Part shown: one piece after another, positions 44,101 through 59,842 of the stretch | How the letters are laid out: each line of letters begins with the position of its first letter | How positions within the stretch are numbered: position 1 is the first letter of the stretch | Origin: Oscillospiraceae bacterium | Lineage (GTDB): Bacteria; Bacillota; Clostridia; Saccharofermentanales; Saccharofermentanaceae | Assembly (NCBI GenBank): GCA_902794115.1 | Contig: CADBGD010000001.1 | Location: forward strand, 1 to 61,497 | Reading direction: 5' to 3' | Length of the DNA stretch: 61,497 nucleotides | The notes under the pieces: model-generated | What the model was told of the DNA's origin: nothing | The model's database searches: none | Seen by the model: the letters and a program-made list of their open reading frames with translations, nothing else | Program-made: the position numbers and the translations under genes

Positions 44101-47100
44101 CCTTCGGATACTCTATGGCAGTACTGTTGAATTCTGAAAGAATCCGGGCTTTTTCCTCCTCACAGATCACCTGTACCTGATCGATCCGTAAAGAAGGAGT
44201 CTCCGTCAGTTCTTCCAGTACAGCGATATAGTGCTTGAGAAGATTCTCCGCGCTTTCTTCTCTGAACAAGGCTGTACAGTACTCCAGTCCAATATCAAAA
44301 TCGTCTTCATGTCCGTTGATGTTGAACGTAATATCGAATTTGGCGACCGTATCCTCCGATTCGGCATATTCTGTTTCCGCACCGTTCAACCGGATCTGTT
44401 CGGTCTCATTGTTTTGGAGAACGAGCATAACATCAAACAGCGGGTTTCTGGACATATCCCTTACAACATGAACTGACTCGACCAGTTCCTCAAAAGGATA
44501 CTCCTGATTCTCGTAGGCTTTCAGACAGGTGTCCTTGATTTCGGAAAGAAATTCCAGGAACGTCTTTTTTCCCTCCGGTTTGCCACGCAAGGCCAGTGTA
44601 TTGATAAACATACCCAGCATACCTTCCGTATCCTTGTGGGTACGGCCACTGATCGGTGTACCGATCACAATATCCTCCTGACGACTATACTTTCCCAGAA
44701 GGATCATCGCAGCAGAAAGCAGTACCATAAATTCCGTCGTGCCGGTCTTGGCGGCAAGATCACGGATCTTTCTTCCCAAAACCTCGCCGGTACTGTTAAA
44801 TACCATAGAACCACGATAACTCTGCTCCTGCGGTCTGACGAAATCCAGAGGCATATCCAATACCGGGATCTCATCATCAAACTGATGTTTCCAATATGCC
44901 GCCTGTCCGCTAAGATCACGATTACGCATCCATTCACTGTAGTCTTTGAACTGATGGGTCAGCGCAGGGAGTTTCTCGCCATTATACAGTGCATTCAACT
45001 CCCGGATAAAAGTACCCACACTCATGCCGTCACCTACAATGTGATGCATATCAATGTTCAACAGATAGTATCCGCTCCGCTCGATGAGCTGAACCCGGAC
45101 AAGCGGGAGTTCACTCAAATCAAATGGGCGGACAAAATCGGAAATCAGCTTAGCTTCATCTGTTTGCGTATCCTGGATATACTCAAAATCCGCATCTGCA
45201 TGATTCAGGATTTTCTGCACCGGTTCCCCGTCCACCATGAGGAATTTTGTCCTCAATATCTCATGCCGGTCGATCAGATCCTGCAATGCGCTTCTGAATG
45301 CATCCGGATTCACCTCACCATGAAGTATCAGATGCTCCGGCATGTTATACAAAATGTCATCCGGATTCATCTGGCAGACGAGATATGTTCTTTTCTGGGC
45401 GGAAGACATCGGATAGTATTCCTTCTCTTCTGCATGCGGAATCGATACAAACTCTTCTTCCTTTTTCCCGTTTACGATTTCAGCCAGTTTTTCCGGAGTC
45501 GGACTGCTGAAAACAAATTTTAACGGGATCCTCTTTCCGGTTTCCGCCTCTATACGGTTTACCAGTCTGGTTGCACGCAAAGAATGGCCGCTAAGAGCAA
45601 AGAAACTGTCCTTAACGCTGACTTTCTCTACATTCAGGATCTCACTGAAGATGCGGCAGATAATTTCTTCTGTTTCATTACTCGGTGCTACATATTCGCC
45701 GCCGGTTTTTGCTTCGATATCCGGCAATGCACGCTTATCGACTTTTCCGTTTCTGGTCATCGGTATTTTTTCGATCTGCGTCATATAGGACGGCAGCATA
45801 TAATCCGGAAGCGATTTTGCAAGTTCATCCCGGATCATCGGAATGCGGACAGCCTCATCACTGACAACATAAGCATAGATCGCCTTTTCTCCGTTGCTGT
45901 CATTTCTTGCAATTACCGCACAATCTTTGATTTTATCGATTTCCCGGATACGGCTCTCGATTTCACCCAGTTCAATTCGGAAACCACGGATCTTCACCTG
46001 TTCATCGATTCGGCCAAGATATTCGATATTTCCGTCCGGCAGCCATCTGGCAAGATCACCTGTCCGGTACATTCTTCCTTCACTAAATGGATTCTTTACG
46101 AATTTCTCCGCTGTCAGATCCGGTCTGTGCAAGTATCCTCTTGTGATTCCTGCTCCGCCTGCACAGAGCTCACCCGGCACACCGACTCCACACAGTGTAT
46201 CACCCTGCAGAATGTATACCTGCACGTTGTGGATCGGTTTGCCTATCGTGATTCTTTCAGGTGTTTCCCCCTTCTTACATATCCAGTTACTGATACATAC
46301 CGTTGCCTCAGTCGGGCCATAGGAATTAATGTACCCGCTGTTTGCCAGTACAGCTTCCACAACCGACATCGGAGCTGCTGACCCGGCTGTGAGGACATAT
46401 TTATTCAGAACAAAACGGCCCTGCTCATAGTATTGCGGCGGGAAATAAGATACGTTGATCTTTTTCTCGGAAACGTATTTCTTCATGGCATCCAGATCAC
46501 GAATTGTCTCATCTGTCGGTATATACAGAGACGCACCGTTCATAATCGCGGTCAGCATTTCCCAAACCGATCCATCGAAGATGTAATTCGAAAAAAGCAT
46601 GGCATGGTCTTCTTCCGTGATACCCAGTTCTTTTCTCATATAGCAGGCAAGATTGCAGACATTCTTGTGCTCGATCAGCACGCCTTTGGGCTTACCTGTG
46701 GTTCCGGAAGTAAAAATACAATACACAAGATCATCCGGGGTATTTGTATGTTCCGGATTTTCTACCGGGCCCGCAAAAATCTTTTTTTCAGCCAGATCGA
46801 TCACCGGAATATCTGTACGGATCTTCGTATTGTAGGTCAGCACAGCCTTCGGCGCCGCGTCTTCCAGCATATATGCGATTCTGTCTTCCGGATATGTCGG
46901 ATCCATCGGAACATAGGCTCCGCCTGCTTTGATGATGCCAAAGATACCTATGATCATTTCCAGACTTCTCTCGGTGAGCATGGAAACAAATTCACCAGGT
47001 TTGACACCATACTGTTCCCGGAGAGAATGAGCAAGCTGATTCGCTTTTTCGTTTAATTCGCGATAGGTCAGTGCTTCCCCTTCAAAGAAAACGGCAATAT

Positions 47101-50100
47101 TCTCCGGTGTCTTATCCACCTGCTCTTCAAAGAGGTCTACCAGTGTCTTTTCAGTCGGATATGCGACTGAAGTATTATTAAAGTCAATGAGGACTTGTTT
47201 CTCCTCTTCCTTTCCGATCATGGAAATATCTTTGATCAGAGAGGATGGGGTTTCCGTCAGATTCATAAGAATGTGAATATAATGATCCAGGATCTTTTCT
47301 GCGCTCTCTTTCTTGAACAGCGCTGTACAGTATTCCAGACCAATGCCGAAATCACCGTCATCTTCATAGATGTCAAAGGACAGATCGATCTTGGAAATGG
47401 TGTCGGTAGTATCCGCAACCTGCACTTCCGTATTGCCCAGCCGGATCACTTCATCCTCGTTATTCTGCAGGACAAGTATCACATCAAATATCGGGTTTCT
47501 GGACAGATCCCGCTGAACATCTACAGCTTCAACCAGTTCTTCAAACGGGAACTCCTGATTCTCGTAGGCCTTCAGGCAAGTCTCCTTTACTTCCTGAAGG
47601 AAGTCCGTATACTGTTTTTTCCCTTCAGGTTTTCCCCGCATTGCCAACGTGTTGACAAACATACCCAGCATGCCTTCGGTATCCTTATGGGTACGCCCGC
47701 TGATCGGCGAACCGATCACTACGTCCTCTTGCCGGCTGTACTTTCCGAGAAGAATCATGGCTGCAGATAAAAGCACCATAAACTCGGTCGATTTCGTCTC
47801 AGCCGCCAGTTTCTTGATCTTTTCTCCCAAAGCCTTCCCGGTATGCACCATGGCCATGGCACCATTATGGCTCTGCTCCTGTGGTCTCGGGAAATCAAGA
47901 GGCATGTTCAATACCGGGATCTCATCCTCAAACTGACTTTTCCAGTACTTTGCCTGATCACTTAGATCACGGGAACGCATCCATTCACTGTAGTCCTTGA
48001 ACTGGTGTGTAAGCGGAGGCAATGTTTCTCCGTTGTACAGTGCATTCAGCTCCTTTGTAAAGGTGACTGCACTCATTCCGTCACCGACAATATGGTGCAT
48101 ATCCAGATTGAGAAGATAGTGATCCCCTCTGTTTATAAGCTGGACCCGGATCAGCGGCAGCATGCTCAGATCAAAAGGCTTCACAAATCGTGCGGTTAGA
48201 TCTGCCTCTTTGGATGTTTTATCTTCGAAATATTCAAAATCCGCCTCAACATGATCCAGGATCTTCTGCACCGGTTCTCCGTCCATCATGAGGAACTGCG
48301 TACGGAGTATTTCATGTCTGTCTATCAGCTGCTGCAGTGCTTTTTTCAATGCTTCCGGATCAACTTCACCTTTCAGGCGATAAGACTCCGGCATGTTGTA
48401 CAGAATTCCCTCCGGGTTCATCTGACAGATGAGGAATGTTCTTTTCTGGGCAGAAGACATCGGATAGTAATCCTTCTTTTCCGCAGCCGGAATGGATTCA
48501 AATTCAGCGGCCTCTTCGCCGTTAACATATTCAGACAGCATTTCCGGTGTCGGACTGCTGAAGATCGTTTTCAACGGTATTCTCTTCCCTAATTCAGACT
48601 CGATCCGATTGACCAGTCTGGTAGCACGAAGAGAGTGTCCGCCAAGAGCAAAGAAACTATCCTTGACGCTAACTCTTTTCACATTCAGTATTTCGCTGAA
48701 TATAGCACAAATGATTTCTTCAGTACTATTTCTCGGAGCAACATACTCATCCCCGGTCCGGGCTTCAATATCCGGAAGAGACCGCTTATCCAGTTTTCCG
48801 TTTCTGGTTACCGGAATACTCTCAATCTGCATCATATACGCAGGGATCATGTAATCCGGAAGATTTTTGCCCAGCTCATTTCTTACCTTGGAAAGAGACA
48901 ATTCCTCATCACTGACAAGGTAGGCATAGATTGCCTTTTCTCCGGATTGATCAGATCTTGCAATGACCGCGCAGTTTTTCACATTCCGGATCTGGAGAAG
49001 TCTGCTTTCCACCTCTCCCAATTCCACCCGGAATCCACGGATCTTCACCTGTTCATCGATTCTTCCGAGATACTCCACATTGCCATCCGGAAGCCATCTT
49101 GCCAGGTCACCGGTATGGTACATCCGGCCATCTCCAAATGGATTTTTAACAAACTTCTCATTCGTCAGTTCCGGCCGGTTCAGATATCCCCTGGCAACAC
49201 CGGCACCGGCAATACAAAGCTCACCGGGAACACCGATTCCGCACAACACATCTCCATTCAGGATCATTACCTGACTGTTCGCGATCGGTTTTCCAATCGG
49301 AATGGTTTCATTCTCATCAGAATAATCCACCTTATAGTATGTCGCACATACTGTCGTCTCTGTCGGACCATATGTGTTGTATATGCTTATATCCGTATCC
49401 AGGAGATCCTTGAAATATTCCTTCTTCAGCACATCTCCGCCGCTGATGAGTATTCTCATCTGCGTTTCCTTCAGATAATCCATTTCTTTTATCAGAAGCG
49501 GTGAACAGCTTATGATGTTGATTCTCTCATTTATGATCGTTGTTTTCAGTTTCACCGGATCCAGCAAATGATCTTTGTTTACAATGACCATCTTTCCGCC
49601 GCAGATCAATACCGGATACAGTTCCTCTACAGAGGTATCAAAGCCGATATATGCCTGCTGCAGGATAACAGACTGTTCCGTTATCCCGTAATACCGGACA
49701 AACTGGCGGACATATGCTGCCAGATTCCGCTGCTCAATCAGTACGCCTTTGGATTCTCCTGTCGTACCTGATGTGTAGATACAATACGCCAGATCCTTCC
49801 CTGTATTCACATGTGGCAGATTCTCCGTGTCACCGGTATATATCCGGCTATCAGAAAGGTCGATCACGGATATATCCGTGTTTAATGATGCCTGGTATGT
49901 CAGCACCGCCTTAGGCGTGGAATCTTTCAGAATATACGCGATTCTATCCTCCGGATAGGACGGATCAATCGGAAGATACGCAGCGCCGGATTTAAGAATG
50001 CCGTAGATGCCGATAATCATTTCCAGGCCTCTTTCGGCCACAATTGCCACCATATCATCCGGCTTCACGTCTAAATCTCTCAATTTCCGGGCCAATTGGT

Positions 50101-51682
50101 TCGCACGGGCATTCAGTTCCGCATAGGTCAGGGATGTATCTTCATACACAAGCGCAATGTTTTCAGGCGTTTTTTCGACCTGACGCTCGAACAGATCTAT
50201 AACGGTTGTTTCCTCTGATTGTGGAAGAACTGCATTGTTAAACTCCGTCAGGATCTTCTGTCTTTCTTCCTCGCCAACTACCTCAATGCTCTCGATCCTG
50301 GCTTCCGGATTTGTTGTCAGCTTATCCAGAATAAGCAGGTAATGAGCCAGGATCTTCTCAATGGTCTGCTTTTCATAGATAGTCCGGTTATACTCTACAA
50401 ATCCACAAAGAGAAATATCATCATCATGAATCTGGAAGTTCACATCGGTCAGTACAACAAAGTCTCCCAGACCGAATGCTTCCACTTCACAACCTTCTAG
50501 AGAAAGCTCCATTCTCTTTCTGGGATTATAGTTAAATCCGACTTCGGAAAAAGGTGTCCGGCTCAGGTCACGGGGCGGATTTACAGCAGCCACCAGCGTT
50601 TCCAGCGGAACATCCTTCTTTCCGTATGCCTGATATGTTTTTTCCTTCGCCGCCTCCACAGCATCGTCAAAAGTCATCTGCGGATGGATTTCCGTCACGA
50701 TGATCAGATTATTAATAAAGCAGCCAAGCAGGTTTTCAAGCTGTTCATTATCTCTGTCTGCGACAGTGATCTCAACGGCAATATTCTCATTCCGTGTGTA
50801 AAGGTTCAGCAGGCAATTCAACGCTGAAAACAGAACCACATTTACCGTAACGTGCCGGGATGCAGCATATTGTCTGATCTTCTCGTCAATGCTCTTCGGA
50901 ACATCAAAGTAGATCATTCCTCCCTCACTGCTTCGCACAGCCGGGCGCATGTGATCCGTCGGGAACTCCGTCGGTTCGATTCCTTCCAGTTCTTCTTTCC
51001 AGTATTCGATTTGGGAACGGATTTCTTCTGAACCCATCTTTGATAAAACAAATTCAGCATAATCACCATAACTGACAGCAGGTTTTTCCAAGTCAGATTT
51101 CCGATTATGCAGTGCCGCAGTATATTCCTCCGACAATTCCTTACAAAAGAGGTTTTCTGAAGTTCCATCGTACACAATATGATGTCCCGAAAGTACAAAA
51201 TACGCGATGTCCTCTTCAGTCTGATACAAGGCAAAACGGACCAGCGGACCTTTTTCTAAATCAATGGGTTCAGATACGAATCTTTTTCCTTCTTCAGCCA
51301 CAAGAGCGTCATTGTATCCTTTTCCGCGAAGATCAAAATATCTGAAGTCAAGCTTCCCTTCTGGAAGCACTTCCTGGAATACTTCTTCTCCTTCACGGCA
51401 CAGGACTGTCCGCCAGATCTCATGTCGATGGATGATCTGCTCCAAGCTCTTTTTCATCGCTTCCAGATCTACATGTCCCTTGATTTTGCAGGCAAACGGA
51501 ATGTTATATACAACACTGTCCGGATCGATCAGGCAGTCCATCCAAATGCCCCGCTGTACCATGGAAAGCGGGAATTTTGTTTTATGTGATGCAATGATCC
51601 GGTCTGAATCATCCGGTTCACTTTTCTGTTTCTTTTTCGAAAGCATCTTCAAAAGAAGCTGTCTTTTTTCATCGTTATTCAT
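41120..51682 (-). CDS. Trimodular NRPS: C-A-T / C-A-T / C-A-T plus a terminal condensation-like domain (3520 aa)
   Basis: Start at MNNDEKRQ (51682), because the track N-extension overlaps the upstream gene. It has three HHxxxDG motifs, three full A-motif sets and three carrier serines, followed by a ~400-aa C-like tail. No E, TE or R domain is seen. Confidence 0.93.
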   Translation of the reverse strand: MNNDEKRQLLLKMLSKKKQKSEPDDSDRIIASHKTKFPLSMVQRGIWMDCLIDPDSVVYNIPFACKIKGHVDLEAMKKSLEQIIHRHEIWRTVLCREGEEVFQEVLPEGKLDFRYFDLRGKGYNDALVAEEGKRFVSEPIDLEKGPLVRFALYQTEEDIAYFVLSGHHIVYDGTSENLFCKELSEEYTAALHNRKSDLEKPAVSYGDYAEFVLSKMGSEEIRSQIEYWKEELEGIEPTEFPTDHMRPAVRSSEGGMIYFDVPKSIDEKIRQYAASRHVTVNVVLFSALNCLLNLYTRNENIAVEITVADRDNEQLENLLGCFINNLIIVTEIHPQMTFDDAVEAAKEKTYQAYGKKDVPLETLVAAVNPPRDLSRTPFSEVGFNYNPRKRMELSLEGCEVEAFGLGDFVVLTDVNFQIHDDDISLCGFVEYNRTIYEKQTIEKILAHYLLILDKLTTNPEARIESIEVVGEEERQKILTEFNNAVLPQSEETTVIDLFERQVEKTPENIALVYEDTSLTYAELNARANQLARKLRDLDVKPDDMVAIVAERGLEMIIGIYGILKSGAAYLPIDPSYPEDRIAYILKDSTPKAVLTYQASLNTDISVIDLSDSRIYTGDTENLPHVNTGKDLAYCIYTSGTTGESKGVLIEQRNLAAYVRQFVRYYGITEQSVILQQAYIGFDTSVEELYPVLICGGKMVIVNKDHLLDPVKLKTTIINERINIISCSPLLIKEMDYLKETQMRILISGGDVLKKEYFKDLLDTDISIYNTYGPTETTVCATYYKVDYSDENETIPIGKPIANSQVMILNGDVLCGIGVPGELCIAGAGVARGYLNRPELTNEKFVKNPFGDGRMYHTGDLARWLPDGNVEYLGRIDEQVKIRGFRVELGEVESRLLQIRNVKNCAVIARSDQSGEKAIYAYLVSDEELSLSKVRNELGKNLPDYMIPAYMMQIESIPVTRNGKLDKRSLPDIEARTGDEYVAPRNSTEEIICAIFSEILNVKRVSVKDSFFALGGHSLRATRLVNRIESELGKRIPLKTIFSSPTPEMLSEYVNGEEAAEFESIPAAEKKDYYPMSSAQKRTFLICQMNPEGILYNMPESYRLKGEVDPEALKKALQQLIDRHEILRTQFLMMDGEPVQKILDHVEADFEYFEDKTSKEADLTARFVKPFDLSMLPLIRVQLINRGDHYLLNLDMHHIVGDGMSAVTFTKELNALYNGETLPPLTHQFKDYSEWMRSRDLSDQAKYWKSQFEDEIPVLNMPLDFPRPQEQSHNGAMAMVHTGKALGEKIKKLAAETKSTEFMVLLSAAMILLGKYSRQEDVVIGSPISGRTHKDTEGMLGMFVNTLAMRGKPEGKKQYTDFLQEVKETCLKAYENQEFPFEELVEAVDVQRDLSRNPIFDVILVLQNNEDEVIRLGNTEVQVADTTDTISKIDLSFDIYEDDGDFGIGLEYCTALFKKESAEKILDHYIHILMNLTETPSSLIKDISMIGKEEEKQVLIDFNNTSVAYPTEKTLVDLFEEQVDKTPENIAVFFEGEALTYRELNEKANQLAHSLREQYGVKPGEFVSMLTERSLEMIIGIFGIIKAGGAYVPMDPTYPEDRIAYMLEDAAPKAVLTYNTKIRTDIPVIDLAEKKIFAGPVENPEHTNTPDDLVYCIFTSGTTGKPKGVLIEHKNVCNLACYMRKELGITEEDHAMLFSNYIFDGSVWEMLTAIMNGASLYIPTDETIRDLDAMKKYVSEKKINVSYFPPQYYEQGRFVLNKYVLTAGSAAPMSVVEAVLANSGYINSYGPTEATVCISNWICKKGETPERITIGKPIHNVQVYILQGDTLCGVGVPGELCAGGAGITRGYLHRPDLTAEKFVKNPFSEGRMYRTGDLARWLPDGNIEYLGRIDEQVKIRGFRIELGEIESRIREIDKIKDCAVIARNDSNGEKAIYAYVVSDEAVRIPMIRDELAKSLPDYMLPSYMTQIEKIPMTRNGKVDKRALPDIEAKTGGEYVAPSNETEEIICRIFSEILNVEKVSVKDSFFALSGHSLRATRLVNRIEAETGKRIPLKFVFSSPTPEKLAEIVNGKKEEEFVSIPHAEEKEYYPMSSAQKRTYLVCQMNPDDILYNMPEHLILHGEVNPDAFRSALQDLIDRHEILRTKFLMVDGEPVQKILNHADADFEYIQDTQTDEAKLISDFVRPFDLSELPLVRVQLIERSGYYLLNIDMHHIVGDGMSVGTFIRELNALYNGEKLPALTHQFKDYSEWMRNRDLSGQAAYWKHQFDDEIPVLDMPLDFVRPQEQSYRGSMVFNSTGEVLGRKIRDLAAKTGTTEFMVLLSAAMILLGKYSRQEDIVIGTPISGRTHKDTEGMLGMFINTLALRGKPEGKKTFLEFLSEIKDTCLKAYENQEYPFEELVESVHVVRDMSRNPLFDVMLVLQNNETEQIRLNGAETEYAESEDTVAKFDITFNINGHEDDFDIGLEYCTALFREESAENLLKHYIAVLEELTETPSLRIDQVQVICEEEKARILSEFNSTAIEYPKEKTVVEMFEEAVANTPDETAVVYDGQSLTYAELNEKANQLADRLRKLGVKPNDFVAVFTERSLEMIIAIYGVMKAGGAYLPMDPAYPKDRIEYMLEDASPKAVLTYKTSLDTDIIRIDLADPELYSGTSSNPEHVTCPEDLLYCIYTSGTTGKPKGVMIKNQNVVNYSFVSDKSTMTYAYKNGLRRFVSVTNLVFDIFVTEAILTLCNGMTIYVATSEEQSDLAAFEKLVVENGIEILQTTPSRIKGFFAQDPETKVFAGMRYIMLGGEAVGMEVVSRLKAASDAVIENVYGPSETTVWSSCFQIEGEYASIPIGKPISNTQIYIVDKDHLCGIGVPGELCIAGDGLARGYLNRPELTGEKFAPNSFGTGRLYHTGDLARWLPDGNVEYLGRIDEQVKVRGFRIELGEIDSRLREIEGIKDCAVIVREESSGDKAIYAYFVSQDEMDISLIRSELGKNLPDYMIPSYMMRIEKIPVNRNGKLDKRALPVIEASTGKEYIAPRNEAERTMASVFEEILDVEKVGIQDDFFELGGNSLKAIRVSAKLKLFNIPVSTKDLHTYRTISQLAQVLGMDADEEISSSVNADKSAIKISMFEPPVIEGKKVHNEGVIEAIAEYKNNLKGKSIVSSYKPNNMQKYYLHLSTDESSIIGVCFHISGATVSQIQKALTDMVRDQSALRSCYSDEQEKITEYSFGEWKIPYLSASQAVSRESAATCLFAHEVRSGIDILPVILITESGTGSFDVYIAANHALWDRSSCDVAADLLETYLNQSGSTKPDDLTYSDYIQCRNTAEKSVHSKEDSGTILSSIELYKARSAGTYENKSFSVTLKKDENVTYDVRWLMSKFSEISDTKDLSSIPFFMLYHCRDDRSMNTIGYYIDYIPCVYDKKRQEICFYDEAIDKLKEGSAEYHFLGDEYASGICDDVPVVNLKESIDMMSEEMNQIEIYNLGSQSAQEGIECCLDGDKVYVGMGFHMHGVSDEEFYRRIQKAFSIT
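41123..42328 (-). other. Terminal condensation-like domain with an NHxxxD variant motif
   Basis: SFDVYIAANHALWDRSSCDVAADLLETYL aligns with the C3 core (mHHxxxDGxS...l..el...Y). The NHALWD codons are at 41843-41860. No GxSxG. Confidence 0.65.
42386..42604 (-). other. T3 carrier domain
   Basis: FFELGGNSLKAIRV (Ser at residue 3103). Confidence 0.8.
42611..44098 (-). other. A3 adenylation domain (approximate)
   Basis: LLYCIYTSGTTGKPKGV, FDIFVTE, MLGGEA, NVYGPSETT. Code D-I-T-Q-M-G-V-V-W-K. Confidence 0.85.
44126..45424 (-). other. C3 condensation domain (approximate)
   Basis: YYPMSSAQKRTYL and MHHIVGDGMS. Highly similar to C2. Confidence 0.85.
45470..45673 (-). other. T2 carrier domain
   Basis: FFALSGHSLRATRL (LSGHS variant; Ser at residue 2075). 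Confidence 0.85.
45686..47143 (-). other. A2 adenylation domain (approximate)
   Basis: LVYCIFTSGTTGKPKGV, FDGSVWEM, LTAGSA, NSYGPTEAT. Code D-G-W-Y-L-A-S-V-C-K. Confidence 0.85.
47171..48478 (-). other. C2 condensation domain (approximate)
   Basis: YYPMSSAQKRTFL and MHHIVGDGMS. Confidence 0.85.
48521..48733 (-). other. T1 carrier domain
   Basis: FFALGGHSLRATRL (Ser at ORF-track residue 1058). Confidence 0.85.
48746..50218 (-). other. A1 adenylation domain (approximate)
   Basis: LAYCIYTSGTTGESKGV, NTYGPTETT, YHTGDLARW, GRIDEQVKIRGFRVELGEVE, NGKLDKRSLP. Code D-T-E-S-I-G-T-V-C-K. Confidence 0.85.
50276..51583 (-). other. C1 condensation domain (approximate)
   Basis: SMVQRGIWMD (C1 motif) and HHIVYDGTS (51164-51184). 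It is clearly divergent from C2 and C3. Confidence 0.8.
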
Positions 51683-51722
51683 CTGTCTTTCCTTTTCTCT
51701 TGTTCCTTTTTCCGAAGTCAGT

Positions 51723-53660
51723 TTACATGTTGTATCTGGCAAAGGCCTCCTGGTAGGCAGCTGCATTGCCCAGATCGAAAGATTTCCCGTCCACCAGGAA
51801 TCCAATCAGATCCTTTTCTTTAATTGCTTTTCGAAATGCTTCTGTAAGATCGATTTCGCCTTTTTCATTTGTGTGATTATTTCTCACCGCATCGCCCAGG
51901 TAACTAAAGATTTTCTCATTCAGAACATAGGCGCCAAATGCCGCACAGCAAACATTCTCTTCCTTCTTTCGGGAGAGCATCAAATACTCTTTTGCATAAT
52001 CGGGTGTTGGTTTTTCAACTACTTCAGAACAGTTCAGAATACGTTCTTCCTTATCATCCCAGTGGCCGGAGAATACACCAAAAGAAGACACATTTTTCAC
52101 GCCTACCGTCTGCAATGCCACGATGGATTTCCCGTATATATCATATGTGTCCACGATCTGCTTTAAGCACGGAGTAGAAGTGTTGCTCCGGTACAAAGTA
52201 TCTCCCAGAAGGAGCAGTACCGGTTCCTTATTTGTAAAAGAAGCAGCCTGATATACAGCATGCCCGAATCCTTTCGGCTCGTACTGCTTTACAAAGGAGA
52301 TCTTCTTCGTGATTCGAGTCATCTTATCTTCATATGCGCGCATTTTCTCCGGAAGCTTTTCATAATGCTTTCTCGACAATGGACGCAAAAGCAGCTGTCT
52401 GTACATTTCTTCGTCATCCGGATTAATAATCAGGCAGATCTCCTCTATCCCGATCGCATCCAGTTGCTCAAGTAATACCAGGAGGATCGGCTTGACCAAA
52501 CCATCAAGATCTACGATCGGGCACATTTCCTTTTTCGTAAATCTCGTTTCGGGATATAACCGTGTTCCGAATCCGGCAACCGGTATAATCGCTTTATTGA
52601 TCGCCCTTTGCGGTTTCAATGTTAACGGATAGGCAGAAAGACCCAGCGAATGGCTCATGTAATCGATCAGATCGTCCTGGCATTTCTTGTCTTTTGCCAG
52701 AAACTGCACTGTTCCATCTCCCTGTGAACCGACGCCTTTTCCACCATAGGTAAGTTGTTTGATCGTAGTGTTATTGAGTACGGAATGGAGTACCGGTGCT
52801 TTTAATTCTTCCGGGCACATCGGCGCCACTTTCGCATCAAAGATCTCCTGGGCTTCTGTCATTAAGTGGCCCAAACCTTGTGCATCACCGTTTTTAATCA
52901 GTTTTCTGGCCTCTGTCGTAATGCGGATATTGTCCTCGCCCAGTGCCTCATGGAGAGTTTTCTCCTTCTCATTTCGGGCAAACGGATATCCGCTGTTCAG
53001 ATCGGCCAGGATCTTGATCGTATCTTTTTTTGCCATCAGATCGGCAAAAACGTAGTACAGTGGTTTTTTTACCGGAATCTGATCCACATGCATCTCGTTT
53101 CCATCAAAAGTCATCGAAACCGGGTGTGGTCCGAAGGCACAGGCCTGATCGACTCTTCCACATCGGGAAGGCGTTCTCTGTTCACCCCAGTACGCAATAT
53201 TCATGATTCCACGGGTATTCAGATTCAGATTGTACAACTGATTAAATGCCTGTGCGACAAGCACACAAATTGCTGCCGAAGAAGACAATCCCTTCTTCAC
53301 CGGCAGGTCTCTTTTTGTAATTTCAATAGAAACGCCGCCTACGTTATACCATTCGCACATATAGGATGCGACGCCGGCAACATAGCTGAAATATCCTCCC
53401 TGATGCGCAGTTTCACTGAGAGAGTCCAGATCCATCGGGCATTCAAAGGAGCCGTCTTTCAGTTCCTTGATCTTACTGGTTACTGAAAACATGTCCGATC
53501 TTTTTGCACGGGCATATATACCCTGCTGTGTACCTGTTACAATCGCACATCCAGGTGTGATTTCAGAATTAACTGTTCTACTTGTCCCTGCCCAGTCACT
53601 ATGCTCACCAAACAAACACAGGCGTCCCGGCACAAACAAATCAATCGTTTCGTTATCCAT
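51723..53660 (-). CDS. Bifunctional GHMP-family sugar-1-kinase / GalU-like sugar-1-phosphate nucleotidyl(uridylyl)transferase
   Basis: AGGAGGA RBS. The N-terminal half has VPGRLCLFGEHSDWAG (GHMP motif I), KGLSSSAAICV (motif II) and YGGKGVGSQGDG (motif III). The C-terminal half has KAIIPVAGFGTRLYPETRFTKKEMCPIVD and VVEKP. Confidence 0.85.
   Translation of the reverse strand: MDNETIDLFVPGRLCLFGEHSDWAGTSRTVNSEITPGCAIVTGTQQGIYARAKRSDMFSVTSKIKELKDGSFECPMDLDSLSETAHQGGYFSYVAGVASYMCEWYNVGGVSIEITKRDLPVKKGLSSSAAICVLVAQAFNQLYNLNLNTRGIMNIAYWGEQRTPSRCGRVDQACAFGPHPVSMTFDGNEMHVDQIPVKKPLYYVFADLMAKKDTIKILADLNSGYPFARNEKEKTLHEALGEDNIRITTEARKLIKNGDAQGLGHLMTEAQEIFDAKVAPMCPEELKAPVLHSVLNNTTIKQLTYGGKGVGSQGDGTVQFLAKDKKCQDDLIDYMSHSLGLSAYPLTLKPQRAINKAIIPVAGFGTRLYPETRFTKKEMCPIVDLDGLVKPILLVLLEQLDAIGIEEICLIINPDDEEMYRQLLLRPLSRKHYEKLPEKMRAYEDKMTRITKKISFVKQYEPKGFGHAVYQAASFTNKEPVLLLLGDTLYRSNTSTPCLKQIVDTYDIYGKSIVALQTVGVKNVSSFGVFSGHWDDKEERILNCSEVVEKPTPDYAKEYLMLSRKKEENVCCAAFGAYVLNEKIFSYLGDAVRNNHTNEKGEIDLTEAFRKAIKEKDLIGFLVDGKSFDLGNAAAYQEAFARYNM
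51726..52601 (-). other. Nucleotidyltransferase (UDP-sugar pyrophosphorylase-like) half
   Basis: G.GTR..P.T...KE..P motif, VEKP motif, and a GalU-like length (aa ~354-645). Confidence 0.8.
52626..53660 (-). other. GHMP (galactokinase-like) kinase half
   Basis: Motifs I-III as listed above (aa 1 to about 345). Confidence 0.8.
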
Positions 53661-53709
53661 ACATCATTCCTCCTTTGAAACAATGGAAAGAAATAGAAGT
53701 GTATCGTTC

Positions 53710-54453
53710 TTATTTGATCAAATCATCGAAACGGGCAAACTTGATTCCCATATCCACAAAAGCCTTTATGATAGGTCCAAACATCTCATTTGTCTGCGGA
53801 TGATCATGGATGACTATGAGATCTGCCGAACCGGGATAGTTAAGCCCCATCCATCTGTCCGGAAGATCCAGCTCCATCATTTCCAGCACATCATCTAATG
53901 TACGGACTCCATATGGCGGATTCTCCTGATATACACACCACTCCATGGCATCATATGTCCAAAGCCAGTCCACACGCCCGGATTTCCGGAATGCATCAAA
54001 ATACGGGTAGGTGATTTCCTGAAATGACGGGAGCACATATCCGTTTTCTTTTAAAAAGGACTGTATGCTCTCGACCCGTTCTTTTTCCTCTTGCGAATAG
54101 TCCAGATCATAAAAACCACGGGTGACCCCTTCATTTCCATATGGAAAACGGAAAAACTTGGCCGGTCTCTTTACTCCCGCTTTTTCATAGATCCGTTCTA
54201 TCATCTGATCATTCAGCAGGATCTCTTCTTTTGCCTGTTCCAAAGTCAGCTCAGAGAAGTTCGGGTGGGAACATGCATGATTACCGATAATGTGGCCACT
54301 TTGAATGGTATAAAGAACATCATCTTCTCTGATATCCATAAATCGCTTCTCGCAAAACCAAACCGCCTGAATACCATACTGATTTAATATGTCCACTTTT
54401 TCACGGCGGGCCACAGAAGGGCCATCGTCAACTGTCAGGTACGCTTTTTTCAT
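53710..54453 (-). CDS. Polysaccharide deacetylase (CE4 / NodB homology domain)
   Basis: Start at MKKAYL (GGAGGT RBS). Motifs LTVDDGPS, GNHACSHPNF, FRFPYG and LIVIHDH. Confidence 0.88.
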   Translation of the reverse strand: MKKAYLTVDDGPSVARREKVDILNQYGIQAVWFCEKRFMDIREDDVLYTIQSGHIIGNHACSHPNFSELTLEQAKEEILLNDQMIERIYEKAGVKRPAKFFRFPYGNEGVTRGFYDLDYSQEEKERVESIQSFLKENGYVLPSFQEITYPYFDAFRKSGRVDWLWTYDAMEWCVYQENPPYGVRTLDDVLEMMELDLPDRWMGLNYPGSADLIVIHDHPQTNEMFGPIIKAFVDMGIKFARFDDLIK

Positions 54454-54492
54454 ATATACCTCCATGTTCACTTATACTGATTTTCTTTGTAT

Positions 54493-55866
54493 TTACTTGT
54501 TTTCTCTTTTTTTGAGGCTCAATCGCAGCCGTGCTCTCTGCTCATCGGTGAGTTTCTGTATACGCTCACCGGGCGCTTTTTTCTCACAGGATTCCGAAGT
54601 ATTTATTTGCTTTGCTTCCGTTCCCTGCTTCCGGTTAATGGAATACACGTAGTCATCATTACCTATCATCTGCTCAACACGATCAGCTGCTACCGAGATA
54701 CCACGGTTTTCCGCCATCTTCTCAACACATATCCGGTATTTTTCCGAGCCGCGATTTGCCATAAGAGAACGGATCATGTCAGCGACTTTCTCCGGCTGCC
54801 AGTTTCCTGGAAGCAGATAGTCACCCACACCCTGTTCCTTGATCAGTGTTGCATTATACGGTCTGTCTCCATATCCGGGCAGAATCAGTTGCGGTATACC
54901 GATCGCCATTCCTCCCGTAACTGTTCCGATTCCGCCGTGATGGATCAGAACACTTAGTTTCGGCATGATTTCATCAAGTGGGATATATTTGTACCAAACC
55001 ACATTCGAGGGCAGTTCTTTTGGAATAAACTCATCATACTTGCAAAGAACAACGGTCGGCTGGCCAATGATTCCACACGCCTCTATGCTGCTGGTATAGA
55101 AGCTGGCGTCGATCATGGTCGTAGTGCCTCCGGTAATCAGGATCGGATTCGGATTCTTCTCCAACCAATTTGCAAAGTCTTCCGGAATCTCTCTTTGGTA
55201 AGCCGCTTTTCCCTGCTCAAGCGGAAAACCGACCGGATCAATTTTCGTCGGCCACTGATCATCCACATGATCAAACCAGTCCGGCCATAGGGCCAGCGTC
55301 ATTTTTGCACTGCCTTCCCACTGCAGCCAAGAATCTATCGGATCCAGACCAACTGCCTTGCGAAGTTCATTTAAACGAGGAACATCATTCTTTCCTTCGA
55401 GATCTTCAAACAGCAGCATACTGGCTACTTCCGACGGATAACCGATCACAGTGGCCAAAGGAAGCTTTCTCTTCTCCGCCACCATATACGCAGCTACACT
55501 GGAACGGCTCTTGCAAAGAAGAACTGTATCCGGGCTTTGACAGCAGGAGTCGACGATTTTATATTCTTTCAGTCTTAACTGAATGTTTTCTGTACTTTGC
55601 CTGAACTCATTTGATGAATATGAAAAATTACTGCTTTGGAAAGCATGATCATCTTTATTCCGATACATCAGATCCACCAATGCATCGTACTCTTCCGGAG
55701 TATCCCACGGAACAAAGTCCAGCCCGGCCTTCTCAGCCATACCGGCAAAGTGACAGTGCGTAACCAGCGTTACGTGATGACCTCGTCTTTTCAGTTCTGT
55801 ACCAATCCGGACATAGGGAATCACATCCCCATCCAGCCAATGGGTGACAACAACAACATTCGCCAT
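54493..55866 (-). CDS. GT1-family glycosyltransferase, paralogue of 37908-39230
   Basis: Start at MANVVVVTHWLDGDVIPYVRIGTELKRRGHHVTLVTH, by homology with the paralogue's N-terminus. Donor motif HHGGIGTVTGG. The track start at 55995 is a TTG without an RBS. Confidence 0.85.
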   Translation of the reverse strand: MANVVVVTHWLDGDVIPYVRIGTELKRRGHHVTLVTHCHFAGMAEKAGLDFVPWDTPEEYDALVDLMYRNKDDHAFQSSNFSYSSNEFRQSTENIQLRLKEYKIVDSCCQSPDTVLLCKSRSSVAAYMVAEKRKLPLATVIGYPSEVASMLLFEDLEGKNDVPRLNELRKAVGLDPIDSWLQWEGSAKMTLALWPDWFDHVDDQWPTKIDPVGFPLEQGKAAYQREIPEDFANWLEKNPNPILITGGTTTMIDASFYTSSIEACGIIGQPTVVLCKYDEFIPKELPSNVVWYKYIPLDEIMPKLSVLIHHGGIGTVTGGMAIGIPQLILPGYGDRPYNATLIKEQGVGDYLLPGNWQPEKVADMIRSLMANRGSEKYRICVEKMAENRGISVAADRVEQMIGNDDYVYSINRKQGTEAKQINTSESCEKKAPGERIQKLTDEQRARLRLSLKKRENK

Positions 55867-56099
55867 ACCAACTACCTGATCTATGGCTCCATTGCTTTTT
55901 GTCGGTTCTATGCACCCCCATATTTTCTGCACAGCCCGCTTTAATTTCGCACTTTGCTCAGCAAACAAAACCCAACCCACTGGGCCGCCGCGCAAAAAGT
56001 GTCATTATATAGAAAAAGAGACTACAGAAAAAAGTCGACAAAAAAACTACTTTTTTACCAAAAAATCATTAATCCTTTCTTCGTTTTCCTTCCTGCTTA

Positions 56100-56162: not shown

Positions 56163-58115
56163 TCACTCCAATTCAAAAGCACCCGTGTACAGCTGGTAGT
56201 ATTTTCCTTTTTCAGCCACGAGTGAAGCGTGGTCTCCCTGCTCGATAATACGGCCATTTTCCAGCACCATGATCATCTCACTGTTTTTTACGGTGGAAAG
56301 CCTATGTGCAATAACAAATACCGTGCGGTTCTCCATCAGCGCATCCATTCCACGCTGCACGATCGCTTCTGTACGTGTATCGATCGAACTGGTTGCTTCA
56401 TCGAGGATCATGACCGGCGGATCAGCCACAGCGGCACGGGCGATCGAAATCAGCTGGCGCTGACCTTGAGACAGTTCCGAACCGTTTGCCGTCAGCAAAG
56501 TATCATACCCTTGCGGAAGCTTACTGATGAAATCATGTGCATTGGCCAGTTTGGCAGCAGCGATACATTCTTCCTCCGTCGCCGAAAGATTTCCGTAGCG
56601 GATATTTTCCATGACAGTTCCCGTGAAAAGTTGAGTGTCCTGAAGCACCACGCCAAGCGAGCGGCGCAGGTCCGCCTTCTTTATTTTATTAATGTTGATA
56701 TCATCGTAGCGGATCTTTCCATCTGCTATGTCATAGAAACGGTTGATCAGATTTGTGATCGTCGTTTTTCCGGCACCGGTTGCACCGACGAAAGCAATCT
56801 TCTGCCCCGGCATGGCATGTAAAGTGATATCGTGAAGCACGGTCTTCTTTCCGTCATAACTAAAATCCACCCCTGAGAAACAAACTTCGCCACGCACAGG
56901 TGAGTACGTCAATGTTCCATCCCCATGCGGATGTTTCCACGCCCAAACATAATCATCATTAGAGTTATGGACAAGCGGCGTCTCCTTCGAAACCTCTATC
57001 AGTTTTTCCCCATCTTTCCGGCAACGCACTAGCGTAACATATCCTTCATCCGGCTCGGATTCTTCATCTAGAAATTGAAAGATTCTTTCCGCCCCGGCCA
57101 TCGCCATATTAATGGCATTCATCTGTCCCGACATCATCGATACCGGTTCTACGAAAGCACGTGTCAGCTGCAGGAAAGATGCAATCACTCCGACAGTAAT
57201 GACGCTCAACTGACAACGGATCGCCAAAAAACCGCCGATAAACGCTACCAGTACATACAGAACTTTTCCGATGCTGTCTGTCAACGGCATCATAATATTG
57301 GCAAAGATGTTCGCCTTCGTCGAATTCAAACAGAGTTCATCATTCTTATGGTCGAATCTCTGTATAGCACGCTTCTCATACGTAAATACTTTAATGACTT
57401 TCTGACCATTGGCCATCTCTTCAATATAACCATTCACATTTCCAAGCGAATCCTGCTGTTTCATGAAGTACTTTGCGCTTTTTCCTCCGACCTTTCCAAT
57501 CAGGAAAAACATTGCCGCCGTACCCATGATGACGGGGATCGTCAATTGCCAGCACAGGAAAAGCATGCCGATCAGATTGGCTGCAAAGGAGATACAAGAA
57601 GAGAGTGTGGTAGGGATACCTTGGGAAATCATCTCCTTCAGGGCATCTACATCATTTGTGTAATGACTCATCACATCTCCGTGTGCGTGAGTATCGAAAA
57701 ACGAAAGCGGAAGAGTCTGCATGTGACGGAACATTTCATCACGGACATTCCGTAATACATTGTTAGCAATCACCATCATGATCTGTGCCGAAAAGAACTC
57801 CACCAGTACCGCAAATCCATACAATAGCCCGAGTTTTCCGATCCATGTTGCTAGTCCGGAGAAATCCACCGCGTTTATTCCTGATGTTTCCGCCGTTTTC
57901 AAAAACGGCATCACGTAGTCATCGAGCAAGTCTTTTATAAACACATTACTCAAAACAGCAACAATAGAGGCGAGAATTATACAAACGACGACCAGACACA
58001 GTAGTAATTTATATTTCCCGGTCAGATAGGAAAGCAAGCGCTTGATATTCTTCATAGAAAGCGGACTTTCCTGCGGTTTTTCCTGTTCCATTGTTTCCTC
58101 ATCGATGACAGACAT
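56163..58115 (-). CDS. ABC exporter half-transporter (TMD-NBD) with a canonical ATPase site
   Basis: Walker A GATGAGKTT, signature LSQGQRQ, Walker B plus catalytic Glu VMILDEATS. The ATG overlaps the upstream stop (TAATG). Confidence 0.92.
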   Translation of the reverse strand: MSVIDEETMEQEKPQESPLSMKNIKRLLSYLTGKYKLLLCLVVVCIILASIVAVLSNVFIKDLLDDYVMPFLKTAETSGINAVDFSGLATWIGKLGLLYGFAVLVEFFSAQIMMVIANNVLRNVRDEMFRHMQTLPLSFFDTHAHGDVMSHYTNDVDALKEMISQGIPTTLSSCISFAANLIGMLFLCWQLTIPVIMGTAAMFFLIGKVGGKSAKYFMKQQDSLGNVNGYIEEMANGQKVIKVFTYEKRAIQRFDHKNDELCLNSTKANIFANIMMPLTDSIGKVLYVLVAFIGGFLAIRCQLSVITVGVIASFLQLTRAFVEPVSMMSGQMNAINMAMAGAERIFQFLDEESEPDEGYVTLVRCRKDGEKLIEVSKETPLVHNSNDDYVWAWKHPHGDGTLTYSPVRGEVCFSGVDFSYDGKKTVLHDITLHAMPGQKIAFVGATGAGKTTITNLINRFYDIADGKIRYDDININKIKKADLRRSLGVVLQDTQLFTGTVMENIRYGNLSATEEECIAAAKLANAHDFISKLPQGYDTLLTANGSELSQGQRQLISIARAAVADPPVMILDEATSSIDTRTEAIVQRGMDALMENRTVFVIAHRLSTVKNSEMIMVLENGRIIEQGDHASLVAEKGKYYQLYTGAFELE

Positions 58116-59842
58116 TACTCCTCGCCTCCCTTCTTCTGAGATTCATATACTTCCCGGTATATATCATTGTCGGCCAAAAGTTCCTGGTGGGTGCCGATAC
58201 CACTGATCCTGCCTTTATCGATCACGATGATTCTATCCGCGTTCTCTACGGAAGAAATACGCTGGGCAATAATCAGCTTCGTCATTCCCGGAATCAATTC
58301 AGAAAAACCTTTCTGAATCTGGGCATCCGTTTTCGTATCGACCGCACTGGTCGAATCATCCAGAATGAGGATCTTCGGCTTTTTCAAAATGGCGCGGGCT
58401 ATACAGAGCCTCTGCTTCTGTCCGCCGGAAACATTGGTTCCGTCCTGTTCAATATACGTGTCGTATCCCTTCGGGAAAGACCGGATAAAAGAGTCCGCCT
58501 GAGCAATCTCACATGCCCGTCTCATCTCCTCGTCCGTTGCTTCCGCATTTCCCCAGCAAAGGTTCTCCCGGATCGTACCCGAGAAAAGAACATTTTTCTG
58601 AAGCACCATGGTTACATTGTCACGGATGACATCCAAATCATAATTCCGCACGTCGACTCCGCCGACTTTGATCCTTCCGGATGTGACATCATAAAGTCGC
58701 GGGATCAGCTGTACCAGAGAAGATTTTCCGCTTCCGGTCCCGCCTATGATTCCCACTGTTTCTCCGGAACGGATATGCAGGTCGATATCTGACAGGCAGC
58801 ACTTCTCCTCGTCATTGGAATAACTGAATGATACATTTTCAAAATCTATGGAGCCGTCTTTCACTTCCAGGATCGGTTCCTCCGGATTTCGGATATCCGG
58901 TTCCTCTTCCAGTATTTCAGCAATACGAGCTGCCGACGCACGGGAAATGACGAGCATAACAATAATCATCGACACCATCATCAGGCTCAGCAGTATCTGC
59001 ATGGTGTAGGTAAACATAATCGTCAGTTGTCCGGTCGTCATCTCCTTCTTTACGACCAGTTTTGCGCCGAACCAGGAAATCAGAAGCATTGCCGTATAGA
59101 TGCTGGACATCATGATCGGGCTGTTGAAATTCAGTGCTCTCTCCGCTTTTACCGAGTCGTTTCGAATACTGTTGGATACAGATGTGAATTTCTCGGTTTC
59201 ATGTTCTTCCCGCACATAAGATTTGACAACACGGATACCACGTACATTTTCCTGAACAACATTATTCATCCGGTCGATCTTAGTAAACATGCGGGTAAAG
59301 ATCGGCTGTGCATAGCGGAAGATAAGATACAAACCGATCAGCATCAGTGGTGCAATACCCAGGAATATCAGTGCCAGTCTGGTATTGATCGTAAAAATCG
59401 CCGTCATAGCAAATATCAGCATGATCGGTGCCTTTACCGCAATCAGAATTATCGTCTGATACGCATTTTGCACATTCATCACATCTGTCGTCAGTCTTGT
59501 GATGATACTGGACGTTTTAAACTTATCTATATTGGAAAATGAGAATTTCTGCAGCTGGCAAAACATATCGTGTCTAAGATTCCGGGCAAATCCGGAGCTT
59601 GCTTTGGCGGCAAAACTTCCGGCTAAAGCTCCGAATGCCAGATATGCCAGCATACACACCAGAATCAGAGTCCCCATCCACCATACGTAGTCCATGTTGG
59701 ATTTTTCAACACCTTCATCGATCAGTTTTCCCATAAGGAACGGCATAATTACTTCCATGGCAACCGCCAGAGAAACCAGGACCGGTGAAAGGATAGATGG
59801 TTTTTTATACTCTCTTACCGAGAGCAGGAGCCTCTTGATCAT
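58115..59842 (-). CDS. ABC exporter half-transporter (TMD-NBD) with a degenerate catalytic residue
   Basis: Walker A GGTGSGKSS and signature VSGGQKQ. Walker B ILILDDSTS has Asp in place of the catalytic Glu, as in heterodimeric exporters. The start overlaps the TE-II stop by 4 nt (ATGA). Confidence 0.92.
   Translation of the reverse strand: MIKRLLLSVREYKKPSILSPVLVSLAVAMEVIMPFLMGKLIDEGVEKSNMDYVWWMGTLILVCMLAYLAFGALAGSFAAKASSGFARNLRHDMFCQLQKFSFSNIDKFKTSSIITRLTTDVMNVQNAYQTIILIAVKAPIMLIFAMTAIFTINTRLALIFLGIAPLMLIGLYLIFRYAQPIFTRMFTKIDRMNNVVQENVRGIRVVKSYVREEHETEKFTSVSNSIRNDSVKAERALNFNSPIMMSSIYTAMLLISWFGAKLVVKKEMTTGQLTIMFTYTMQILLSLMMVSMIIVMLVISRASAARIAEILEEEPDIRNPEEPILEVKDGSIDFENVSFSYSNDEEKCCLSDIDLHIRSGETVGIIGGTGSGKSSLVQLIPRLYDVTSGRIKVGGVDVRNYDLDVIRDNVTMVLQKNVLFSGTIRENLCWGNAEATDEEMRRACEIAQADSFIRSFPKGYDTYIEQDGTNVSGGQKQRLCIARAILKKPKILILDDSTSAVDTKTDAQIQKGFSELIPGMTKLIIAQRISSVENADRIIVIDKGRISGIGTHQELLADNDIYREVYESQKKGGEE

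Follow-up and report, generated by a model that had tools for sequence, protein, structure and literature searches.

A predicted sugar kinase–uridylyltransferase fusion encoded in a nonribosomal peptide synthetase operon of a rumen Oscillospiraceae bacterium

The genome stretch analysed here, 61,497 nucleotides from an Oscillospiraceae bacterium (GenBank assembly GCA_902794115.1, contig CADBGD010000001.1, positions 1 to 61,497; hereafter the window), encodes at positions 51723..53660 of the minus strand a protein of 645 amino acids plus stop, in which a predicted sugar-1-kinase is joined to a predicted UTP:sugar-1-phosphate uridylyltransferase. The gene lies within a nonribosomal peptide synthetase (NRPS) operon, a gene cluster of the peptide-antibiotic type, and we consider it probable that its product is a bifunctional kinase/uridylyltransferase supplying a uridine diphosphate (UDP)-sugar for glycosylation of the nonribosomal peptide, the two activities, the use of UTP, the identity of the sugar and the connection to the peptide all being read from sequence and gene context. 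The N-terminal half, a GalK-like GHMP kinase, would use ATP to phosphorylate a free hexose at its anomeric hydroxyl, and the C-terminal GalU-like domain would join the sugar-1-phosphate to UMP from UTP to give a UDP-sugar, an Isselbacher-type, Leloir-independent activation in a single polypeptide. The family would normally provide precursors for surface polysaccharides; one copy appears, in this rumen genus, to have been drawn into the NRPS operon within a three-gene sugar module (a GT1 glycosyltransferase, a CE4 deacetylase and the fusion), and the UDP-sugar would go to one or both of the GT1 enzymes of the operon for peptide glycosylation. New here are the setting in secondary metabolism, the host genus without a canonical GalU, and the links to GalE and to UDP-galactopyranose mutase (GLF), which point toward galactose.

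One gene with two enzyme halves

The open reading frame (ORF) runs from an ATG to a TAA and is preceded by a Shine-Dalgarno sequence (AAAGGAGG, positions 53669..53676, minus strand) 8 nucleotides (nt) 5' of the start codon. As the initial annotation of this DNA had proposed, a single fused frame carries all the motifs that it quoted: GHMP kinase motifs I (PGRLCLFGEHSDW, residues 11–23), II (GLSSSAA, 124–130) and III (GGKGVGSQGDG, 306–316), followed by the GalU-type loop (GxGTR...KE..P, 362–381) and VEKP (548–551). Pfam recognizes both domains, GHMP_kinases_N at residues 93–176 (E = 1e-13) and NTP_transferase at residues 356–643 (E = 2e-21). The gene is not split by a frameshift or stop: a two-gene artefact is ruled out by an independent 7.8-kb contig (X11, from a run of a separate study), which spans positions 51533–54500 with 18 substitutions and no indels, and by full-length relatives, since orthologues (82–86% identity) are of the same length and the two-domain form of 641–668 amino acids is common to them and to more than 100 homologues at about 60% identity. 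At least 17 gut runs from cattle and sheep contain half or more of the sampled words of positions 51000–54500, and 20 runs, with 13 studies represented, hold all or part of that stretch. The gene is the sole copy in its own genome. An AlphaFold2 model built from an alignment of 25 fused proteins has a mean pLDDT of 89.2, and a fold search with this model found no PDB chain spanning both halves.

The kinase half (residues 1–350; 52611..53660, minus strand) is predicted to adopt a GalK-like GHMP fold. It shows the features of the GHMP kinase superfamily, namely motif I, motif II of the form PxGxGLxSSA and a glycine-rich motif III on a two-lobed fold. When the two halves were searched separately against PDB sequences, the best solved relatives of this half were the galactokinases of P. 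furiosus (1S4E, E = 6e-12), L. lactis (1PIE) and P. horikoshii (2CZ9), with mevalonate and homoserine kinases ranking after them. In the alignment to the Pyrococcus and Lactococcus galactokinases, PGRLCLFGEHSD falls on the GalK signature (motif I, PGRxxLxGEHxD), motif II is also aligned, and CGRVDQ, which contains the predicted catalytic Asp171, lies opposite the GxLDQ stretch that bears the catalytic aspartate of GalK. The catalytic Arg/Asp residues and the Glu-His-x-Asp sugar loop of GalK are all present, as Arg13, Glu19, His20, Asp22 and Asp171. Across the 25 fused proteins, which reach down to 30% identity, there is no variation at Arg13, Glu19, Asp22, Ser127, Ser128, Asp171 or the glycines of motif III, and conservation at His20 and Trp23 is 90% or higher. 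The modelled kinase half aligns with galactokinases over about 370 columns at TM-scores of 0.75–0.79, depending on the target, and the mevalonate kinase fold is matched as well. The Pfam galactose-binding domain GalKase_gal_bdg (PF10509) was not reported for the fused protein, and relatives reach PF10509 weakly; a feature search of the ESM Atlas returned generic GHMP or galactokinase clusters only and no functional lead. We take the kinase half to be a putative GalK-type anomeric sugar kinase and not an orthologue of the Leloir GalK. NahK, which had been listed among the comparison kinases, is not a GHMP kinase.

The GalU-like half (residues 354–645; 51726..52601, minus strand) has its best solved relatives in B. 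subtilis YngB (E = 2e-34) and H. pylori GalU (E = 2.5e-29), and its model matches bacterial UDP-glucose pyrophosphorylases with TM-scores of 0.8–0.88. The separate searches thus place the two halves among galactokinases and bacterial UDP-glucose pyrophosphorylases, with the catalytic residues kept. The ligand residues of YngB (PMC7961091) were mapped onto the fused protein through the HMMER alignment. In the YngB structure, uridine is bound by Ala13, Gly14, Lys28, Glu29, Gln105 and Gly110, Mg2+ by Asp133, the diphosphate by Lys192, and glucose by Asp134, Gly172, Glu191 and Val204 (PMC7961091). All six uridine contacts are retained in the fusion, Ala362, Gly363, Lys377 and Glu378 in the GxGTR loop region and Gln459 and Gly464 beyond it, as are the Mg2+ ligand (Asp487) and the diphosphate ligand (Lys550), and their retention lends good support to the predicted use of UTP. 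Among the glucose contacts, Gly172 and Glu191 are kept as Gly528 and Glu549, the latter adjoining Lys550 in VEKP, and Val204, which may be a backbone contact, corresponds to Ala574. A further landmark, Asp629-x-Gly631, lies near the C-terminus.

The fused gene in its operon

The operon consists of ten genes, all in the minus-strand orientation, and the fused gene is the sixth. The NRPS gene (41120..51682) begins with an ATG at 51682, 40 nt past the stop codon of the fusion. On the other side, across a 49-nt gap, lies the CE4 (NodB-type) deacetylase gene (53710..54471), preceded by a GT1 glycosyltransferase gene (54493..55995; EryCIII-like_C / UDPGT / MGT-like). The mechanical ORF of this GT1 begins at a TTG and is 500 amino acids long; orthologues have 458–468, and given these lengths the true start is probably near 55866. 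The first gene of the operon encodes a type II thioesterase (59839..60552) and is followed by two ABC exporter genes (58115..59842 and 56163..58115). Beyond the NRPS lie a stand-alone adenylation-carrier (A-T) protein (39230..41065), a second GT1 glycosyltransferase (37908..39230) and, as the last gene of the cluster, a 4'-phosphopantetheinyl transferase (37175..37891). The position directly upstream of an NRPS, in an operon with two GT1 genes, which the initial annotation had pointed out, is confirmed, and the synteny is conserved. Short metatranscriptome contigs from two rumen runs (X19, X20) map to positions 51189–51646, at the 5' end of the NRPS coding region, with DNA carry-over possible; no contig on the fused gene was seen in those two runs, which says nothing about its expression.

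Within its GTDB family, the fused gene is found in 10 of 142 other genomes, and within the genus in 3 of 24 others (4 of 25 with its own). In all three of these genus-mates, an orthologous NRPS follows directly after the fusion; the NRPS of genome G140 is identical, and those of G129 and G120 share 60–67% identity over the first 500–700 residues. The order GT1-CE4-fusion-NRPS is kept in G129, in the near-identical G140 and in the metagenome contigs L003, L004 and L100, where the fusion is 82–85% identical. G120 keeps the order as well, with an extra type II thioesterase gene (L007:9274-9978) between the CE4 gene and the fusion and a gap of 547 nt between the fusion and the NRPS. This order is confined to a clade of at least 82% identity, consisting of four genomes of the genus and three metagenome contigs. 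The synteny in six related places, together with the tight spacing, supports the assignment of the fusion to the NRPS operon: co-oriented with the core synthetase, closely spaced and co-inherited with it, the gene behaves as a putative member of the cluster. In G129 (L008, G129:C50, about 1370-55287), an NRPS frame of 2578 amino acids upstream of the orthologous cluster and one of 8463 amino acids downstream lie on the same contig, so that the NRPS region there is far larger than that of the window.

Genome G119, also of this genus, encodes a related NRPS (54% identity at the N-terminus; L094, G119:C45:1-10649). The genes upstream of it encode only a thioesterase, an exporter of the TauE type and a GH3 glycosidase, and there is no GT1, CE4 or fusion gene; the sugar genes thus look like an add-on module. 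The G119 locus may be a sugar-free natural version of the cluster. The next closest homologue of the fusion, at 73% identity, lies in a Wzx-type polysaccharide locus. The simplest history would be that a polysaccharide-precursor gene was recruited into an NRPS cluster within one genus-level lineage.

A widespread family and its usual surroundings

The kinase-first fusion is a large, widespread family, not a rarity. A search of a set of 5.8 billion proteins gave at least 8000 scored candidates, of which the best 120 were inspected; one 471-residue fragment aside, these are two-domain proteins of 641–668 amino acids, named "hypothetical" or "sugar phosphate nucleotidyltransferase". An exhaustive search of 50%-identity representatives yielded 6261 matches at E ≤ 1e-3, 448 of them at E ≤ 1e-30. 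Among the best 150 representatives, 43 have both halves, with the kinase first in every one of the 43, and 89 have the kinase alone or with another partner. Relatives are encoded by at least 548 stretches of species-representative genomes and are spread over many phyla, the carriers including Lachnospiraceae, Oscillospiraceae, Prevotella, Muribaculaceae, Spirochaetes, Lentisphaerae, Verrucomicrobiota, Anaerolineae, Myxococcales and Planctomycetes. A split form exists at one locus (L095), in the order GLF, GT2, kinase (350 amino acids) and GalU-like gene (270 amino acids), the last two adjacent and the GLF gene two genes upstream of the kinase. Members of the kinase clade are also fused to DUF4422, a SIS domain, RING, Ysc84 or SET (proteins P0132, P0324, P0171, P0178 and P0241, the SIS form being P0324), and the RING, Ysc84 and SET forms look eukaryotic. 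The SIS-kinase fusion was considered as a hint of a heptose (GmhA/HddA-like) pathway and dropped: its contig is short, only a nucleotidyltransferase and MurT adjoin it, and there is no GmhB.

Every homologue at or below 73% identity for which the gene context was read lies in a surface-polysaccharide or teichoic-acid-type locus, and among the best 80 species-level loci NRPS, GT1 or CE4 neighbours occur only in the species of the window itself. When all neighbours within 8 kb were clustered for 78 genome loci, GT2 glycosyltransferases were the most frequent (29 of 78 loci, 13 directly adjacent genes), followed by NAD-dependent epimerases (16 loci, 7 directly adjacent), ABC ATPases (14 and 2), GT8 glycosyltransferases (10 and 3), GLF (9 and 3), UDP-glucose dehydrogenases (8 and 3) and priming sugar transferases (Bac_transf; 8 and 5). 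No CE4 relative stands beside the fusion in these 78 other loci, and CE4 is therefore not a partner of the family.

The candidate sugar and the supply of UDP-hexose in the host

The most likely conversion is that of D-galactose into UDP-galactose, to which we would give close to an even chance, because of the GalK-like catalytic and C6-contacting residues, the links to GalE and GLF, and the existence of a GalE-kinase fusion. UDP-glucose, UDP-N-acetylhexosamine (UDP-HexNAc) and UDP-L-arabinose are less likely products than UDP-galactose. In GalK, a Glu-His pair touches the C6 hydroxyl, and this pair is replaced in plant arabinokinase and galacturonokinase; since the fusion family keeps it with little or no variation, L-arabinose or uronic acids are less likely substrates. 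Five of the ten neighbouring epimerases that were scanned pass the NCBIfam equivalog cut-off for GalE (L071, L073, L030, L054 and L080), and the order GLF-fusion-GalE recurs among the loci; in L009–L011, GLF lies directly upstream of the fused gene, at 48 nt. A planctomycete protein (P0204) is a natural fusion of GalE with the kinase and scores 378 bits to galE.

The galU model detects no canonical GalU across the genus (25 genomes, several of them 98–99% complete); the matches at E ≤ 1e-30 are the fused genes only, and in its own genome the fusion is the best GalU-like sequence. Neither type of GalT was found in that genome (89.6% complete), nor was a UDPGP-type enzyme, the latter search carrying little weight because it was also blank in all control genomes. 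The genome does carry a GalE above the cut-off and two GLF genes (contigs C8, C13 and C79). In other carrier genomes, canonical GalU is missing in four of five. These absences are consistent with the fusion opening a supply of UDP-hexose that the host would otherwise be without. A second GalK-like gene of the same genome (L098, G000:C71:3938-5230, minus strand) encodes 430 amino acids with a galactose-binding signature and a sub-threshold gal_kin score of 150 bits; it lies not in a Leloir operon but in another polysaccharide locus, where its neighbours are a metallophosphoesterase, an acyltransferase and a dehydratase of the CapD/PglF type.

A more far-reaching version, which we regard as speculative and rather unlikely, is that in the GalU-less genus the fusion is the sole entry to the UDP-hexose pool (GalT and UDPGP-type enzymes being absent as searched in its own genome), so that glycosylation of the peptide would depend on the presence in the rumen of free galactose or of a similar sugar from plants. 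If true, this would tie secondary-metabolite maturation or self-protection directly to diet and would define an overlooked, dedicated bacterial family of Isselbacher-type enzymes.

Points against the proposal and alternative readings

Several observations weigh against the proposed activities, sugar and role. No characterized kinase-first GHMP/GalU fusion was found in the literature, of which coverage was partial and from which papers on FKP, zebrafish GKUP, and plant or Leishmania UDP-sugar pyrophosphorylase (USP) surfaced; since no assayed member of the family was found, both enzyme activities are predictions. The kinase half scores 51–54 bits with gal_kin (TIGR00131), below the cut-off of 226.65, and its top NCBIfam hit is mevalonate kinase, at 66–68 bits. 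The SxYNxRR motif of GalK, whose tyrosine contacts the sugar, is not recognizable, HMMER alignments ending before that region; in its apparent place the family shows KDTxKIL, with an invariant Lys212-x-Thr214, and a mostly conserved Tyr/Phe225 in AYPF. The C-terminal half covers all 261 positions of the galU profile (TIGR01099) at 159–161 bits, short of the 326.8 cut-off. The glucose ligand Asp134 of YngB corresponds to Thr488, a position that holds Thr, His, Gln and other residues across the family, and, compared with YngB, insertions of 5 residues after PIVD and of 12 residues after VEKP flank the sugar site. The P. aeruginosa UGP paper gave no usable indication of which hydroxyl the GalU aspartate touches. 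As aligned, the sugar pocket resembles the GalU pocket without being identical to it, and on account of the substitution and the two insertions the sugar may be neither galactose nor glucose. Since polysaccharide loci of all kinds often contain GalE, GLF and UDP-glucose dehydrogenase, the neighbourhood is weak evidence for the sugar, and the adjoining CE4 deacetylase suits an N-acetylhexosamine better than galactose. With regard to the host, completeness of 89.6% for its metagenome-assembled genome limits the absences, and a second galactokinase would be partly redundant, since canonical GalK is present in three of the five other carrier genomes.

An N-acetylhexosamine (GalNAc or GlcNAc) is an unlikely alternative substrate: a GT1 would transfer the sugar of UDP-HexNAc, and the CE4 enzyme would then deacetylate it to an amino sugar. 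The NodB-type deacetylase gene lies directly upstream (in G120 with the thioesterase between) and accompanies the fusion in every orthologous cluster; the replaced glucose-contact aspartate and the 12-residue insertion imply an altered pocket; and UDP-HexNAc is also a substrate of some GalE and GLF enzymes. However, UDP-GlcNAc is made by every peptidoglycan bacterium, so that a dedicated salvage route adds little, and one GT1 could draw on the UDP-GlcNAc pool while the other uses the product of the fusion. The lack of any CE4 relative with the fusion in the 78 other loci also speaks against this substrate, as does the retention of the GalK-type Glu-His-x-Asp loop, the latter point being weakened by the presence of the same loop in human GalNAc kinase.

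Similarly improbable, in our estimate, is that a UDP-sugar is made for glycosylation that serves as a self-protection or pro-drug step of the macrolide MGT/OleI type, and not as permanent decoration. Both GT1 enzymes have the macrolide glycosyltransferase family as their best NCBIfam match (83 and 67 bits) and macrolide- and rifamycin-inactivating enzymes as weaker ones, and a pair of ABC exporters is encoded in the operon. Yet all of these scores are far under the family cut-offs (260–800 bits), and the PDB relatives, CalG1, GtfA/B/D and sterol glucosyltransferase, include ordinary tailoring enzymes. The two proteins look like UDP- or TDP-sugar-dependent tailoring and macrolide-type glycosyltransferases, a likeness that sets neither the donor nor the choice between decoration and self-protection, and the data do not separate these roles.

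Far less credible is that the fusion is a cell-wall polysaccharide gene that merely adjoins the NRPS and has no part in the peptide pathway. The polysaccharide or teichoic-acid-type surroundings of all homologues at 73% identity or less would fit this view, as would the fact that the gene is the only copy in the genome, but it sits inside the operon between the CE4/GT1 genes and the NRPS with gaps of 40–49 nt, its position is kept across orthologues of 82–86% identity, and in the genus it occurs only alongside an orthologous NRPS. Equally remote is the idea that the N-terminal half is not an anomeric sugar kinase (being mevalonate-kinase-like, inactive or regulatory) and the protein a UDP-glucose pyrophosphorylase: the 68-bit mevalonate kinase hit and a genus without another GalU-type enzyme are in its favour, but motif I has the GalK-type arginine and the GEHxD loop, where mevalonate kinases have a lysine in motif I and lack the aspartate of the loop, Asp171 and the ATP motifs are invariant in the family, structure and sequence matches place galactokinases first, and the stand-alone kinase of the clade (L095) is paired with a GalU-like gene.

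Significance

Routes that lead from free sugar to nucleotide sugar in one protein are valued tools for glycan synthesis, FKP being widely used in this way, and they show gut microbes building surface glycans from scavenged sugars. The present family is large, spans many phyla and is generically named, so that one assay would annotate thousands of genes. The fusion in the NRPS operon of these uncultured rumen bacteria would clearly exemplify how a gene for sugar activation in primary or cell-wall metabolism is recruited to secondary metabolism, and it predicts a glycosylated nonribosomal peptide from a little-studied group of anaerobes, which is useful for natural-product mining.

Comparison with known systems

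The closest functional parallels are FKP of Bacteroides fragilis and plant FKGP, in which a GHMP anomeric kinase and a sugar-1-phosphate nucleotidyltransferase likewise share one polypeptide and convert free sugar to nucleoside diphosphate-sugar for surface glycans (PMC11982464). In FKP, which has 949 amino acids against 645 in the fusion, the pyrophosphorylase occupies residues 1–496 and the kinase residues 519–949 (PMC11982464), so the domain order is indeed opposite, as initially noted, and it is also the reverse of that in zebrafish GKUP. The accompanying claim that the families differ from those of FKP stands for the pyrophosphorylase, which in FKP has a beta-helix domain and is not of GalU type, and not for the kinase at superfamily level, the FKP kinase being also a GHMP enzyme, albeit fucokinase-type and not GalK-type. 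FKP uses GTP, whereas the fusion keeps UTP-type residues, and FKP is missing from the best 50 fold matches of the fusion model. The FKP/FKGP architecture does not describe the family, given the reversed order in all 43 fused representatives and their GalU-type pyrophosphorylase. The zebrafish glucuronokinase/putative UDP-glucuronate pyrophosphorylase (DrGKUP) resembles the fusion in combining a GHMP sugar-1-kinase with a short bacterial-type, UTP-using nucleotidyltransferase (PMC3938481). It differs in that the nucleotidyltransferase comes first and the kinase last, and it is eukaryotic and glucuronate-specific, with a pyrophosphorylase activity that was not clearly shown (PMC3938481).

Galactokinases (P. 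furiosus 1S4E, L. lactis 1PIE, human 1WUU/6GR2) are closest to the kinase half in fold and sequence and share its Arg/Asp pair, GEHxD loop and motifs II and III, but identity in fold alignments is 16–22%, the region of their SxYNxRR motif looks different in the fusion, with an invariant Lys212-x-Thr214, and the fusion lies outside a Leloir operon. GalU, GtaB and YngB are closest to the C-terminal half, in which their uridine, Mg2+ and phosphate ligands are kept; unlike the fusion, they are not joined to a kinase, have the glucose-contact aspartate (Asp134 in YngB) in place of the variable Thr488, and are without the 5- and 12-residue insertions. AmgK with MurU, and HldE, likewise couple an anomeric kinase to a nucleotidyltransferase and are built from other parts: AmgK is an APH-type kinase, and HldE, in which the kinase also comes first, combines a ribokinase-type kinase with a cytidylyltransferase-type domain and requires a phosphatase step between its two reactions. 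The Isselbacher route of plants and Leishmania, GalK followed by USP, has the same succession of anomeric kinase and nucleotidyltransferase, with USP a eukaryote-type UDPGP enzyme and a separate protein (PMC4722067, PMC3659416). Because it falls below the equivalog thresholds of both GalK and GalU and departs from the FKP architecture, the fusion belongs to no named family, standing nearest to galactokinases in one half and to bacterial UDP-glucose pyrophosphorylases in the other.

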